Origin: an uncultured Acidobacteriota bacterium
GTDB lineage: Bacteria > Acidobacteriota > Terriglobia > UBA7540
Direction: 5' to 3'
NCBI GenBank assembly: GCA_963804995.1
Contig: CAWDSK010000002.1
Coordinates: 480,001 to 544,000, forward strand
DNA: 64,000 nt
Positions 41,401 to 45,997 of this stretch are shown piece after piece; position 1 is the stretch's first letter; each line of letters starts with the position of its first letter. The position numbers and the translations under genes were made by a program. The notes under the pieces were generated by a model. That model was not told where the DNA came from. It worked only from the letters and a program-made list of their open reading frames with translations, and did no database searches.

Positions 41401-41726
41401 TCGAAAGACCCCCGATTTCCCGGTACGATTAAGTCTTCAAAGCACTTGCGGTGCCATTCCAAGGGGAGTGTGGAGAAATTCAACGCCCCTCAGGGTTATG
41501 TGACCTGGTCCTCTGGGGGGGGCCTGAGGTGGCAAAACAGGGAGTCGCGCGCCCCCACAATCGAAAACTCGTGCCTCCGCGCCCCCGAATCTCTATTCAA
41601 CATGAGAGATTAACTAACACATTATAACCTTCCGGAAATCAGAATTCCCAATTCGTCATTACGATTTTGGCCTGCTTGCCTTTTTGGGGTGCGTCAAGTA
41701 GGATGGCGGGAATTTCAGGTCACCCT

Positions 41727-42557
41727 ATGTCATCGAACGCTTCGATCAAGTTAGATGTGTGGCTGACCGTGGGTTTTGGCGCGGGACTGTATTATTTCTA
41801 CAAAGGCTTTCGCATTTTTCGAGAGTACCGCGTGCTGATGGATACTCCTGAAATCCCGATTCGCAGTGTCGCCATGGGCCTAGTGGAAATCCACGGTAAG
41901 GCCACGGGTATTCCGCCCATACCCAGTCCTGTTACCCGAACTCCGTGCTACTTCTATAAAGTGGAGATCGAGCATTGGGTTCATGATAAGAATGGCGGAC
42001 ATTGGTCTCACATTGCCACTGATGCCGACGGAAAGAGATTTTATCTCGCGGACGCAACCGGCAAGGTGCTGGTGGACGCGCACAATGCGGAATACGATTT
42101 GATCCAAACCGCCAAGGTTGAAACGGGAGGCAGTTCCGGATTGAGCTTCGGGCGCCTCTTCTCGGGCATCGGTGGTTCCACGCCCGCGGTGACCCCTGGG
42201 CTTGACACTGACCTCTGGTCCTATGCTTCCGCGGCAGTCTCCCGCCGGAAAGGCAGCGGCATTTTTGGGGGCGGTGCGAGTGCGGGGGAGCGCTATCGGC
42301 TGACTGAGCATTTGGTGTTGCCCGATCATTGGTACGACCTCACGGGGACCTGCGTGGAGAATCCCGAACCTCAGGACGAACACGACCGCAATTTGATCAC
42401 GAAGGGAACGAACGAGCCAACCTTCTTGATCACCTGGCGAAGCGAAAAGGAAATCAGACAGACATTGCGCAATCGGGCCGCCAAGTATATTTTCGGCGGC
42501 GGGGTTCTGGCTGTGGCCTGCCTGGGAATCCTACTCTTAAAATTGGGATGGTTATGA
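41727..42557 (+). CDS. GIDE-domain-like membrane protein
   Basis: N- and C-terminal TM helices; DTP..IRS.AMGLVEIHG, SPVT.TPC.FY, FYLAD.TG.VLVD, RLTEH; next to lemA; start uncertain. Confidence 0.7.
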   Translation: MSSNASIKLDVWLTVGFGAGLYYFYKGFRIFREYRVLMDTPEIPIRSVAMGLVEIHGKATGIPPIPSPVTRTPCYFYKVEIEHWVHDKNGGHWSHIATDADGKRFYLADATGKVLVDAHNAEYDLIQTAKVETGGSSGLSFGRLFSGIGGSTPAVTPGLDTDLWSYASAAVSRRKGSGIFGGGASAGERYRLTEHLVLPDHWYDLTGTCVENPEPQDEHDRNLITKGTNEPTFLITWRSEKEIRQTLRNRAAKYIFGGGVLAVACLGILLLKLGWL

Positions 42558-42578: not shown

Positions 42579-43145
42579 ATGGGTCTAGCGATTCTCGTGG
42601 GATTAGTGGTCGTCCTGGTGGTGGTAGGGGTCTTCGTCTACCTGATCACGATTTACAACAGCCTGGTGCGCCTCAAGAACGACATCGATAAGGCCTGGGC
42701 GAATATCGATGTGCTGCTCAAGCAGCGGCACGACGAACTTCCCAAGCTGATTGAAACCTGCAAAGGCTATATGCAGTACGAGCAGAAGACGTTTCAGCTC
42801 ATTACCGAAGCGCGCACGGCGTTCATGAAAGCCGGTACCGTGAGCGAAAAGGCTCAGGCTGACAACATGATTACCGGCGCGCTCAAAAGCCTGTTTGCCG
42901 TGTCGGAGAACTATCCGGAACTGAAGGCCAACAACAACTTCATGCAATTGCAGAAACGCATCTCGGAGTTGGAAGAGAAGATCGCCGACCGGCGCGAATT
43001 CTTCAACGACGATGTGAATACTTACAACATTCGCATTCAGCAACTTCCCGATGTGTTCCTGGCGCGTATGATGAACCTGCAACACCATGACCTGTTCAAG
43101 GTTGCGGAGGAGGATCGCCAGGACGTTGAGGTGAAGATGAGCTAA
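42579..43145 (+). CDS. lemA: LemA-family protein
   Basis: YNSLVRL..AWANIDVLLKQRHD.LPKL, AVSENYPELKAN.NF.QLQ, E.KI...R.FFN. Confidence 0.95.
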   Translation: MGLAILVGLVVVLVVVGVFVYLITIYNSLVRLKNDIDKAWANIDVLLKQRHDELPKLIETCKGYMQYEQKTFQLITEARTAFMKAGTVSEKAQADNMITGALKSLFAVSENYPELKANNNFMQLQKRISELEEKIADRREFFNDDVNTYNIRIQQLPDVFLARMMNLQHHDLFKVAEEDRQDVEVKMS

Positions 43146-43213
43146 GCCCCTGCGGGCAGATTTCCGGGCAAGCGGTTTGCACGCTTTACGCTTCCGCCCG
43201 AAAGGAGCCGGAT

Positions 43214-43807
43214 ATGATGCTAGCCATGATCGGCCTGGGGCTTGTGGTGGGACTGGCCATCCTCGTGTTTTTGGTCGTGATTGTTATCGCCGTGGTTGGG
43301 TACTTCGTGGGCATTTACAACAGTCTGGTCACGCTCAAAAACGACATCGATCGCTCCTTCTCCAATATTGACGTGCTGCTGAAGCAGCGGCACGACGAAC
43401 TGCCCAAGCTCATCGACACCTGCAAAGGGTACATGCAATACGAACAGAAGACTCTCCAGGCGGTTACCGAAGCCCGCACCGCTTACCTGCGCGCCTCCAC
43501 GCCCGCCGAGAAGACTCAAGCCGATAACATGGTCACCGGCGCGCTCAAAAGCCTGTTTGCCGTAGCCGAAAAATATCCGGACCTCAAGGCCGATGCAAAT
43601 TTCATGCAACTGCAAGGGCGCATCACGGAACTCGAGGAAAAGATTGCCGGGCAGCGCGGCCGCTATAATGAAGACGTCAACGATTTCAATATCCGCATTG
43701 CTCAGATTCCCGCCAACTTCGTCGCGGGCTTCATGGGACTCCAGCCCCACGCCCTCTTCCAGGTTGCGGAAACCGACCGCGAAGACGTGAAAGTCAGCTT
43801 CACTTAG
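43214..43807 (+). CDS. lemA: LemA-family protein (tandem paralog)
   Basis: YNSLVTL..SNIDVLLKQRHDELPKL, AVAEKYPDLKA. Confidence 0.95.
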   Translation: MMLAMIGLGLVVGLAILVFLVVIVIAVVGYFVGIYNSLVTLKNDIDRSFSNIDVLLKQRHDELPKLIDTCKGYMQYEQKTLQAVTEARTAYLRASTPAEKTQADNMVTGALKSLFAVAEKYPDLKADANFMQLQGRITELEEKIAGQRGRYNEDVNDFNIRIAQIPANFVAGFMGLQPHALFQVAETDREDVKVSFT

Positions 43808-43814
43808 TGCCAAC

Positions 43815-43843
43815 AAAAAAGGCCCGCTTGGGGGAGCGGGCCT
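43815..43843 (-). terminator. intrinsic terminator (U-tract on the minus strand)
   Basis: AGGCCCGCT-CCCCCA-AGCGGGCCT followed by TTTTT on the minus strand. Confidence 0.8.
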
Positions 43844-43881
43844 GGGGAAAGGAGGAAACCTGAAACGGTTTCAGTCCTATC

Positions 43882-43917
43882 TTATCTCTTCTTTTTCTTT
43901 GCCTTCTTCGCTGCCAT
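43882..43917 (-). CDS. putative 11-aa basic micropeptide MAAKKAKKKKR
   Basis: AAGGAGG RBS 8 nt upstream of ATG, TAA stop, own terminator and upstream TTGACA. Confidence 0.6.
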   Translation of the reverse strand: MAAKKAKKKKR

Positions 43918-43960
43918 ATTGTTCCCCTCCTTTGTTGGAATTTTTTGGGGCCTACGCGAG

Positions 43961-44026
43961 AGACCAGTATTTGTGGTCTGGCGCGCTCTTACCACTATAT
44001 GTAGTATGCTTCGAACAACTTGTCAA
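43961..44026 (-). promoter_or_regulatory. tandem NrdR-box-like sites next to a TTGACA -35 element
   Basis: CCACTATATGTAGTAT (43992-44007) plus weaker AGACCAGTATTTGTGG (43961-43976), 31 bp apart; TTGACA at 44026-44021. Confidence 0.55.
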
Positions 44027-44111
44027 GCAAAATGTTGGGCAATATGTTCGGCGACGATGCGCCGCTATCTTCCGGACGGTTTCGGTTCGCCTTTTTGTCA
44101 CGAGGGACTTG

Positions 44112-44461
44112 TGTAGCGCTGCCCTTATGGATTTTGAATTTAGTAACTTGTTTCGATGCCGTGCGGGTGTAAGTAACCCCTCATCCGGCCTCCTACGTCA
44201 GCCACCTTCTCCCCTCGGGAGAAGGCTATTATCCGGTTCCGGCCAGGGGAAGGTTATATCGAAGCGCCCGCTGGCCAAATTGAAGACCCATTCTCTGCGT
44301 ATGCCGATGGAGCACCCCCTTGAATAACCGCCCTCTCCGAGGGGAGAGGGTGGACCGCCGCCGGCGTTTTCATCAGCCGGGGCGGGACGGGTGAGGGGTC
44401 ACTTGGGGGCTCGGGGCGTTTGAGAATTCCAGGAATTCAAAAACCATAAGGTCGGCGCTAC
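44112..44461 (-). repeat. composite MITE-like element, second copy
   Basis: Inverted homolog of 17363-17654 with a longer central spacer. Confidence 0.8.
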
Positions 44462-44626
44462 GCTTGTCTGGATTGCCTCAGTGAGAGGGTAGGAGTAGAA
44501 TCACCGCGCTTGCGGCCGCCAAGTGCGGAGTCCATGCGCACACCCGACCTGATGCTCTTAGCTGAGCCGATGAACCGATGGCCAGATCACCGGATCACCC
44601 GATCTCCCGATTCCCCCAGGTGCCCT

Positions 44627-45997
44627 ATGAAACTCCACTTCCTCATCTTGGTTCTGTTGCTCGCCGTTGTCACTCAGCCCGCTCTGCCGCAGGAAGCCAA
44701 CGTGCCACTGGGGAAGGACCAGGTCCTGGATCTGGTGAAGTTCGGGTTAGACAGTGGTGAATTGGCGAAGCGCATCAAGGAGCGGGGCATTGACTTCGAG
44801 CCGACCGACGATTACCTCGCAACATTGAGCCAGGCGGGCGCGCAGGAGGCGGTCATTCACGCCTTGCGCGAAGCCAGGCCGAAACCCCTGACCCGCGAGC
44901 AAGTGGGCAAATTAGTGGCAGGCGGAGTGCCCAGCCAGCGCGCCGTGATGCTGGTGAAGCAACACGGTATCGATTTCGTGGCGGATGAGCGGTATCTCCA
45001 GACCCTGCGAGTGGCGGGCGGGGACGACGCCTTGATCGCGGCTCTCCGTCAGGCGAGCGCCGCCGTGACGGCGGAACTGGTGGTTTCAACTTCCCCGAAT
45101 GCCCAGGTCTTTCTGGATGGAGAACTCCAGGGGCACGCCAACGCGCAAGGTGATCTGACGATAAAATCAAAGCCCGGGGCCCACGCGCTGAAAGTTACTC
45201 TGGCAGGCAAGAATGATTTCGAGCAGAGCGTCACACTCGCCGCGCAGCAAGCAACCAAGATCCAGGCGCGGCTGGAGGATATCGTTTCACCGCCGCCGCC
45301 CGGTACCGTCCGGGAGAACCCAAAAGACGGGTTGAAGTACGTCTGGATTCCCCCTGGGACATTCATGATGGGGTGCTCGCCGGGGGACGATGAATGCTTC
45401 GACAACGAGAAGCCGGCACACCAGGTGACCCTGAGCAAGGGCTTTTGGATCGGGCAGACGGAAGTTACGGTGGCCGCCTACAAACGCTTCGCAGCAGCCA
45501 CAGTACGGCAACCGACTTTCAACGGCAGTCGGGCGAATGACGCCATGCCGATCGCGCATGTGGACTGGAATGACGCACACGACTACTGCACTTGGGCGGG
45601 AGGGCGACTGCCCACGGAAGCAGAGTGGGAGTATGCGGCGCGGGCCGGGAGGGCGGAGGCGCGCTATGGGGCGCTCAACGAAGCCGCTTGGTATGATGCT
45701 AACAGCGGAGGGCAGGCCCACGAGGTCGCACAAAAGCGCGCGAACGGGTTCGGATTGTTCGACATGCTCGGAAATGTGTGGGAATGGGTCAACGACTGGT
45801 TTGGAGAGAACTATTATGCCGCCAGCCCGGAGCGGGATCCGCAAGGTCCGGACAGTGGTCAACATCACGCTCTGCGAGGCGGGTCGTGGTACTTCAGGGC
45901 CAATGTCATTCGTTTTTCGTGCCGTGCCAAGGGGGATCCAGCCGGTCCGATCCCTGGGCTCGGTCTTCGTTGTGCGCGGGAAGTTAATATTCCTTGA
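44627..45997 (+). CDS. secreted protein: duplicated RGIDF module + PEGA + FGE-sulfatase (SUMF1-like) domain
   Basis: IPPGTFMMG, TEVT, RLPTEAEWEYAAR, NGFGLFDMLGNVWEW, RGGSW, G.RC. Confidence 0.9.
   Translation: MKLHFLILVLLLAVVTQPALPQEANVPLGKDQVLDLVKFGLDSGELAKRIKERGIDFEPTDDYLATLSQAGAQEAVIHALREARPKPLTREQVGKLVAGGVPSQRAVMLVKQHGIDFVADERYLQTLRVAGGDDALIAALRQASAAVTAELVVSTSPNAQVFLDGELQGHANAQGDLTIKSKPGAHALKVTLAGKNDFEQSVTLAAQQATKIQARLEDIVSPPPPGTVRENPKDGLKYVWIPPGTFMMGCSPGDDECFDNEKPAHQVTLSKGFWIGQTEVTVAAYKRFAAATVRQPTFNGSRANDAMPIAHVDWNDAHDYCTWAGGRLPTEAEWEYAARAGRAEARYGALNEAAWYDANSGGQAHEVAQKRANGFGLFDMLGNVWEWVNDWFGENYYAASPERDPQGPDSGQHHALRGGSWYFRANVIRFSCRAKGDPAGPIPGLGLRCAREVNIP

Follow-up and report, generated by a model that had tools for sequence, protein, structure and literature searches.

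The locus described here raises two questions: whether an open reading frame (ORF) of eleven codons can be a gene in its own right and, if so, what controls it. It is located in a stretch of 64,000 nt from an uncultured Acidobacteriota bacterium (Terriglobia; UBA7540; GenBank assembly GCA_963804995.1, contig CAWDSK010000002.1, positions 480,001 to 544,000), which in its full length is called the window below. In the original prediction, about 210 bases of its minus strand (44026 to 43815) were read as a complete stand-alone transcription unit, which encodes a lysine-rich micropeptide and carries tandem boxes similar to those of NrdR. NrdR is a repressor that senses ATP/dATP and, in other bacteria, binds boxes in pairs about 31-32 bp apart. 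Comparison with related genomes of uncultured soil Acidobacteria indicates that the micro-gene is real and self-contained, as predicted, with conservation from the -35 region to the terminator and a genuinely coding ORF. The best explanation of the locus as a whole is, in our view and with a confidence somewhat above even, that this micro-gene is in addition under the control of NrdR.

All parts of the unit can be read from the sequence, and the TTGACA hexamer, the two boxes, the Shine-Dalgarno sequence (SD), the ORF and the terminator were each found where they had been placed originally. The -35 hexamer TTGACA (44026-44021; all positions of the unit refer to the minus strand) is embedded in the extended motif CTTGACAAG and is followed, after 17 nt, by the presumed -10 element TACATA (44003-43998). 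This element, which had already been noted as weak, is devoid of the usual final T, and because of this a consensus promoter scan of the locus made no call on the promoter of the unit. The two boxes are box 1, the NrdR-like 16-mer ATACTACATATAGTGG (44007-43992), which overlaps the -10 element and encloses TACATA, and box 2, the weakly NrdR-like 16-mer CCACAAATACTGGTCT (43976-43961), the start of which lies 31 bp after that of box 1. In the minimum-free-energy fold of the predicted RNA, box 2 is the apical part of a 5' stem-loop (43986-43954). The SD AAAGGAGGGG (43933-43924), complementary to the 3' tail of the 16S rRNA, is located 6 nt before the ATG (at 43917) of the small ORF (sORF), which consists of 11 codons plus stop (ATG GCA GCG AAG AAG GCA AAG AAA AAG AAG AGA TAA; stop codon at 43884-43882) and is translated into MAAKKAKKKKR. 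Behind the stop codon, fold and alignment revealed a small hairpin CUGAAACCGUUUCAG (43874-43860), which differs in sequence from genome to genome, and the alignment further revealed a pyrimidine tract TTTCCTCCTTTCCCC (43858-43844) resembling an anti-SD sequence. An intrinsic terminator was detected by a terminator scan at 43843-43815; it is composed of the stem-loop AGGCCCGCTCCCCCAAGCGGGCCT (43843-43820; 9 pairs, 7 of them G-C) and a T6 run (43820-43815).

The unit was found as a single copy in 27 of the 28 other genomes of the same genus, with 75-90% identity. In the one exception, G010, a genome with a completeness of 85%, only short matches were obtained. While a DNA search of 40 relatives gave matches within the genus only, a family-wide search also revealed full-length or 3'-half matches in other genera. 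In this search some match at E <= 0.01 was present in 94/133 genomes and 23/30 genera, a tally that counts short matches to a paralogous unit (see below) and includes seven genomes flagged as unpublished. An exact 23-mer across the pyrimidine tract and the terminator was found in 36 species-level genomes, all of them titled Terriglobia or Acidobacteria(ota). For the comparative analysis 42 loci were aligned, 20 from the genus and 22 from other genera. The -35 hexamer is unchanged in all 42, and CTTGACAA, CTACTACATAT (in which the presumed -10 element sits), the SD, the ORF, the pyrimidine tract and the terminator are invariant or nearly so. The presence in 27 of 28 genus genomes and the recurrence in other genera indicate that the conservation of the unit is beyond chance.

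The alignment also speaks to the coding nature of the ORF, which is intact in all 42 copies of this locus and in nine of nine copies of the paralogue (51/51). At the locus under study its length varies between 11 and 16 codons, with variants such as MAAKKKAKKKKR, MPAKKKAKKKR and MAVKKAKKKKR. Among 19 genus copies of the same length, the variable sites at codon positions 1, 2 and 3 number 0, 1 and 8 across 10 codons; among 14 copies from other genera the corresponding numbers are 3, 1 and 10. Pairwise codon differences are mostly synonymous (165 synonymous vs 42 nonsynonymous in the genus, 305 vs 86 in the other genera), and insertions or deletions of 3, 6 or 15 nt keep the frame. The start codon is GTG in one copy, the stop codon is TAA or TAG, and every orthologous ORF is preceded by an SD. 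The frame and the ribosome-binding site, on whose conservation in relatives, together with that of the boxes, the original prediction had made itself depend, are thus retained, and so is box 1. Of the eleven codons, seven specify lysine in this genome (the orthologues have six to nine), and eight of the encoded residues are basic. In the lysine codons purine-for-purine changes occur at the third position only; the exception is the last codon, which is AAG (Lys) or AGR (Arg), a basic-for-basic exchange. That the first two positions are spared argues against a mere constraint on a purine tract in the RNA. The arginine codon itself is AGA, AGG or CGG across the orthologues. Judged from these substitution patterns, selection acts on the amino-acid sequence encoded by the ORF.

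A second stand-alone unit is present in most genomes of the family, including this one, where it was detected outside the window by a pattern search (C2:775788-775823, within the stretch C2:775,730-775,925 that comprises its own promoter, ORF and terminator) and was missed by blastn-short. It encodes MAAKKKAKKKR, which we count as the same peptide. Its promoter has the same extended -35 motif and, at the same distance from it as TACATA in the first unit, the hexamer TAWACA. The 5' hairpin, the SD context (GGAGGAGAAUAGA) and the terminator all differ from those of the first unit, the pyrimidine tail is missing, and no tandem NrdR-like site was found with the matrix from the family's own ribonucleotide reductase (RNR) promoters. 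The extended -35 motif CTTGACAAG is common to the two units and to the RNR promoters of the family. Both sORF promoters thus combine a perfect extended -35 motif with -10 hexamers ending in A (TACATA, TAWACA), unlike the RNR promoters, in which the -10 is mostly TAnAnT. Given the selection on its amino-acid sequence and its occurrence in two units whose untranslated regions (UTRs) are unrelated, the peptide itself can, on this comparative evidence, be considered the functional product; its retention across unrelated UTRs is the strongest argument for this view.

Apart from encoding the peptide, the transcript shows features of a structured RNA. The RNA of about 179 nt that was folded has a free energy of -58.6 kcal/mol (z = -3.14 vs shuffled sequences), and all bases of its SD are paired in the minimum-free-energy fold. 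In the 5' hairpin, the inner stem changes across genera from ACCACA:TGTGGT to GGCC(A):(T)GGCC and GCCACC:GGTGGC with the pairing kept. In its outer stem 86.9% of the cells are paired, and compensatory changes were found in three of the four pairs; the covariation score of this stem was reached by 0 of 500 shuffles, although a slide of -2 is nearly as good. In the genus, the 45 nt that precede the T-run hardly vary (the 20 loci contain two single-base variants, both in the loop), compared with an average identity of about 80% in the remainder of the unit. In particular, the pyrimidine tract TTTCCTCCTTTCCCC is unchanged in 20/20 genus loci and nearly so in other genera, which makes it a candidate seed for pairing with target RNAs. 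The terminator stem is invariant and its loop nearly so across the genus, and compensatory changes in the stem exist in a few genera. The 16S rRNA of this genome ends with ...GGATCACCTCCTTTCT and shares with the tail of the unit the 9-mer CCTCCTTTC, of which the SD of the unit (AAAGGAGG) is the perfect complement; pairing between SD and tract amounts to -14.6 kcal/mol.

The exceptional conservation of the 3' part brings up the possibility that the unit functions solely as a non-coding small RNA, whose seed is an anti-SD sequence and in which the ORF is incidental. The 3'-terminal 45 nt are indeed its most conserved part, and the Rfam search (43000-45000, E <= 10) pointed to a certain likeness to the suhB/mmgR family RF00519 (24.7 bits vs a gathering score of 41, E = 0.024). 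However, the codon-position pattern, the in-frame indels, the conserved SD and start codon and the restriction of purine changes in lysine codons to the third position (the terminal AAG/AGR codon apart) are not expected of an incidental ORF, and the same peptide is encoded by the paralogue, which has no such tail. We therefore consider this explanation very improbable. The score below the gathering threshold also means that the unit is not a member of RF00519; this search returned only sub-threshold, terminator-driven matches and no family at threshold. Like the RF00519 RNAs and NfeR1, which are anti-SD small RNAs of Alphaproteobacteria, the unit has a single-stranded CCUCC-type motif directly before a Rho-independent terminator. 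It differs from them in belonging to another phylum, in its coding ORF, in a perfect SD of its own and in the sub-threshold score.

Alternatively, the act of translation could matter instead of its product: the ORF would then serve as a sensor of lysine codons or of ribosomes, and ribosomes opening a helix with the pyrimidine tract would switch the stability or the trans-activity of the RNA. In line with this, most of the codons specify lysine, the pyrimidine tract has its partner in the consensus fold in the purine-rich stretch at the 3' end of the ORF, and in most copies of the paralogue a helix spanning the stop codon joins the last codons to CCUCUUU. On the other side, none of the positions paired in the long-range helix of the consensus fold varies, so that this helix is without informative covariation and cannot be supported by it. 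Conservation extends to the Ala/Pro, Ala/Val and terminal Arg residues, the latter including AGR-to-CGG changes, and the hairpin behind the stop codon is missing from the paralogue of this genome. With a terminator behind a short ORF in which one amino acid predominates, the unit resembles the leader-peptide attenuators of the trpL/hisL type. It differs from them in the conserved non-lysine residues, in that no alternative antiterminator pairing was seen and in that no gene follows on the same strand; instead, the next gene, a lemA gene on the plus strand (43214-43807), is convergent, which excludes classical attenuation. Altogether, a role of translation as such appears improbable to us, and we continue with the view that the peptide is the product.

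The second question is whether NrdR controls the unit. The original prediction depended on the presence of nrdR in the genome, and a full-length match to TIGR00244 was found at C3:527318-527758 (199.3 bits; cut-off 124.65). In agreement with the statement that no RNR gene is in the window, the sole RNR gene found (PF02867; class II-type, 978-988 aa) is located on another contig (C6). The unit itself controls neither an RNR gene nor nrdR, its sole ORF being that of 11 codons. In the RNR promoter of this genome, TTGACA-N17-TAGAAT is immediately preceded by a pair of boxes at a distance of exactly 31 bp; the boxes of the unit resemble this pair and have the identical spacing. NrdR boxes at the nrd promoters of another bacterium are described in PMC3848588.

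For this comparison RNR promoters were taken from 30 genomes of the family, and 26 were kept after filtering; one with 50 nt upstream and three without a recognisable -35 and box were dropped. The 26 promoters share box A CCACAAnATcTTGggG and box B ccACcAnnnnTtGTag. When the spacing was held to 30-32 bp, it was 31 bp in 20/26 promoters, 30 bp in four and 32 bp in two; without this constraint, it was 31 bp in 17/26. The 52 boxes gave a symmetric matrix, with which they score 9.2-23.8 bits themselves. Box 1 of the unit scores 17.3 bits here and 6.2-20.6 bits across the 42 loci. At its position of +19 from the -35 it is the best match of the matrix in 40 of the 42 sORF loci (10.9-20.6 bits; one of them, L100, is offset only through an extra upstream TTGACA) and the second-best in the other two, and in the 7.55-Mb genome it is among the top eight single sites. 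Box 2 is weak, with 9.3 bits here and 0.6-13.8 bits across the loci. A matrix match 31 bp downstream of box 1 (32 bp in one locus) is present in 39/42 loci; for the remaining three, only a box 2 register 3 bp upstream is listed. A spacing of 28 bp, which was considered as well, corresponds to the register of the genus 15-bp palindrome ACCACAA-A-TTGTGGT and was rejected, and in the 16-bp NrdR register the originally given spacing of 31 bp is borne out. Of the predicted tandem boxes, box 1 thus holds, being well-scoring and kept in relatives, while box 2, as already suspected, is a weak match and coincides with the apex of a hairpin.

Tandem sites of at least 22 bits at a spacing of 30-32 bp exist at only four loci in the genome, all in promoter regions. 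The strongest belongs to the RNR promoter (36.4 bits), followed by the promoter of a D12 (Dam-like) DNA methylase gene (27.3 bits), the sORF locus (26.6 bits, third-best genome-wide) and the promoter of an N6_N4 DNA methylase gene (24.6 bits). The two methylase-promoter sites (loci L292 and L293) are located at C6:379895-379943 and C3:1235557-1235604. The N6_N4 methylase is accessory (2/29 genus genomes), and a conserved NrdR site at its gene was rejected, since the single orthologue found is without boxes. Other occurrences of the 15-bp palindrome ACYACAWATWGTGGT (up to 2 mismatches) were also inspected and set aside: two sites on contig C1 form the inverted termini of a repeat element of about 250 bp, with the terminal repeats at C1:630549-630563 and 630788-630803. 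One of these terminal repeats contains the top single matrix match genome-wide (23.2 bits), which is probably not an operator.

It is also conceivable that the micro-gene is real and that NrdR is not involved. Box 1 would then be nothing other than the -10 and start region, box 2 a stabilising hairpin at the 5' end, and the likeness to NrdR boxes a coincidence. We regard this as possible, although on the unlikely side, and a number of observations weigh for it and against control by NrdR. Most box 2 scores are below those of the RNR boxes, and this box is also explained as the top of an RNA hairpin with covarying stems, which switch in sequence and retain the pairing; its role as an operator is therefore uncertain. 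In the genus, box 2 is a perfect 15-bp palindrome whose register is 3 bp off the NrdR one. The invariance of the box 1 centre (TACATAT) can also be explained by the -10 element, and the promoter of the paralogue has the TACAT core of box 1 without NrdR-like flanks. No nrd gene is nearby. A regulon of four loci is not established, because one of the methylase sites is not kept in the only orthologue found, and the genome-wide rank is no unbiased test, because the locus was picked for its NrdR-like look. Further, the 42 loci are kin and do not represent independent observations. As for the RNA part of our reading, no co-evolution between SD and tail was found among the orthologues, the energies being -14.09 kcal/mol for cognate and -14.36 kcal/mol for non-cognate pairs.

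Against a coincidence stand several features which a -10 element or a hairpin would not need. Box 1 is flanked by CTAC...GTGG (TAGTAG when read on the opposite strand); these flanks correspond to the half-sites of RNR box B, are dispensable for a -10 element and are missing from the paralogue. The hairpin loop formed by box 2 keeps CAAnATcTTG, the core of RNR box A, which is not required by the hairpin. For this reason, the explanation of box 2 as an RNA hairpin only was not adopted outright and was kept as a rival. Last but not least, the spacing found in 39/42 loci is that of the RNR promoters, and strong tandem sites of this kind are as rare in the genome as described above. On balance, control of the unit by NrdR seems rather likely to us, as judged from the promoter sequences.

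Compared with the NrdR operators at RNR promoters, the locus is alike in the presence of nrdR in the genome, in two 16-bp boxes spaced by 31 bp over core promoter elements and in a box 1 score that lies within the range of the family's own RNR boxes. It differs in the controlled unit, which is an 11-codon ORF or RNA and not an nrd gene, and in the position of the boxes, which lie at the -10 element and downstream of the start and not, as the RNR boxes of the family, upstream of the -35. In addition, box 2 is weak here and doubles as an RNA hairpin.

Based on these considerations, we propose the following model. The promoter with its strong -35 would drive the synthesis of an RNA of about 175 nt, comprising in this order the 5' hairpin, the near-perfect SD, the 11-codon ORF, the pyrimidine tract resembling the 16S tail and the intrinsic terminator. 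NrdR would bind to box 1 over the -10 element and to the weaker box 2 at about +15 to +30, and in its DNA-binding state it would shut the promoter, from which co-regulation of the unit with the single class II-type RNR follows as a proposal. There is fair support in the sequence data for repression of the window copy by NrdR via both boxes and thus for coupling of the unit to the RNR gene. The second unit, which is free of boxes, would supply the peptide independently of NrdR. More tentatively, the pyrimidine tract may limit translation of the ORF by masking the SD of its own transcript in cis, or it may act in trans on SD-like sequences elsewhere, and this would make the unit a dual-function RNA. 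A function of the tract as a protein site is conceivable, too. Similarly, it is tempting to speculate that a polyanion, be it DNA, RNA or the ribosome, is the binding partner of the polycationic peptide when DNA synthesis steps up.

Dual-function small RNAs encoding a small protein are known from other bacteria, examples being SgrS/SgrT, RNAIII/delta-haemolysin and SR1/SR1P. The unit resembles them in that a short transcript, predicted to stand alone, is delimited by a promoter and a terminator of its own and contains a small ORF supported by comparative evidence and a separate conserved RNA segment; its peptide of 11 aa, almost pure lysine, is far shorter than SgrT, delta-haemolysin and SR1P. 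Very small and highly basic peptides are also known from ribosomes (eL41, Thx and the mycobacterial bL37/bS22). They share with the predicted product the tiny size, the polycationic character and a strong SD. No sequence relationship to them exists, however, the peptide of the unit is about half as long, and it is encoded here by two gene copies that are probably regulated differently. The unit thus appears to combine known kinds of elements, a coding small RNA with a putative NrdR-type operator, with a peptide class for which we found no description. A search of the full-text literature, which did not extend to subscription-only papers, revealed neither an NrdR-controlled small RNA or ORF nor an oligolysine micro-gene.

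Within the class, the peptide pattern was found in 35 of 47 genomes of the family, three of which are flagged as unpublished, and it was found in none of 253 genomes of 12 sister families; a control with the reversed pattern gave 0 matches. Scanning all prokaryotes with one genome per species yielded at least 118 loci with the pattern, and the in-frame ones among the matches listed are mostly from Terriglobia. When a GAGGTG SD was required, the complete list comprised 11 loci, in all of which (11/11) the SD-led ORF is in frame, vs 4 in 10 expected from the allowed gap lengths alone. One of them is from the Acidobacteriota family itself, and ten are outside the Acidobacteriota: three from Woesearchaeota, and others from Pacearchaeota, Nanoarchaeota, Aenigmatarchaeota, Methanosarcinales, Levyibacteriota, Elusimicrobiota and a further bacterium with two tandem copies. 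These look-alikes, mostly from DPANN archaea, are SD-led ORFs of 9-12 codons of the form MAAKK..KKR, and several of the loci have promoter-like and terminator-like signals of their own. At this length, both homology and convergence are conceivable.

A further, bolder reading, to which we give a rather low probability, connects these observations. According to it, the family possesses two genes for an oligolysine polycation, of which one is apparently constitutive while the other is switched by NrdR together with the RNR, and this polycation acts as a replication-coupled counter-ion or chaperone for new nucleic acid. In the NrdR copy the tail mimicking the anti-SD would damp translation initiation, and the look-alikes in DPANN, candidate phyla radiation (CPR) bacteria and Elusimicrobiota would belong, by convergence or by ancient descent, to one so far unrecognised class of oligolysine micro-genes. 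In its function such a gene pair could be likened to the replication-dependent and the replacement genes for histone tails.

The genomic surroundings were inspected for both units. Two tandem genes of the LemA family (encoding 188 and 197 aa; 42579-43807) converge on the first unit, the second of them ending on the opposite strand 8 nt before the T-run of the terminator. This pair is preceded by a gene for a GIDE-domain membrane protein (41667-42557). Upstream of the unit, an FGE-sulfatase/PEGA gene is located beyond a multi-copy repeat element (44121-44461), which lies just upstream of the unit, has 17 further matches in this genome and is without an Rfam match. The 58-nt core of the repeat (about 44341-44398) is found at many sites in genus relatives with 93-100% identity. 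Among 18 loci of the paralogue that were examined, a convergent rmuC gene adjoins it in the seven genomes with a scannable flanking frame (>= 250 aa). A gene for a VWA-domain protein is on its other side in four of these seven cases, and at three further loci the VWA gene occurs alone. The neighbours of the first unit and those of the paralogue (the VWA gene and rmuC) were considered as a clue to function, and neither explains it.

The identification of this micro-gene is important for several reasons. With its 11 codons, it would be among the shortest protein-coding genes with comparative evidence of selection at the amino-acid level, and it is of a kind that is invisible to gene callers and protein databases. 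Its promoter has sites like those of NrdR, the sensor of DNA precursors, and the peptide may thus be tied to DNA synthesis. If NrdR controls the unit, its regulon extends past ribonucleotide reductases to a small peptide and RNA, and this would give a direct handle on the other adjustments that the cell makes when DNA precursors run short. Finally, the two copies with their probably different regulation, together with the look-alikes in distant ultrasmall archaea and bacteria, suggest a simple and reusable solution that annotation has missed.

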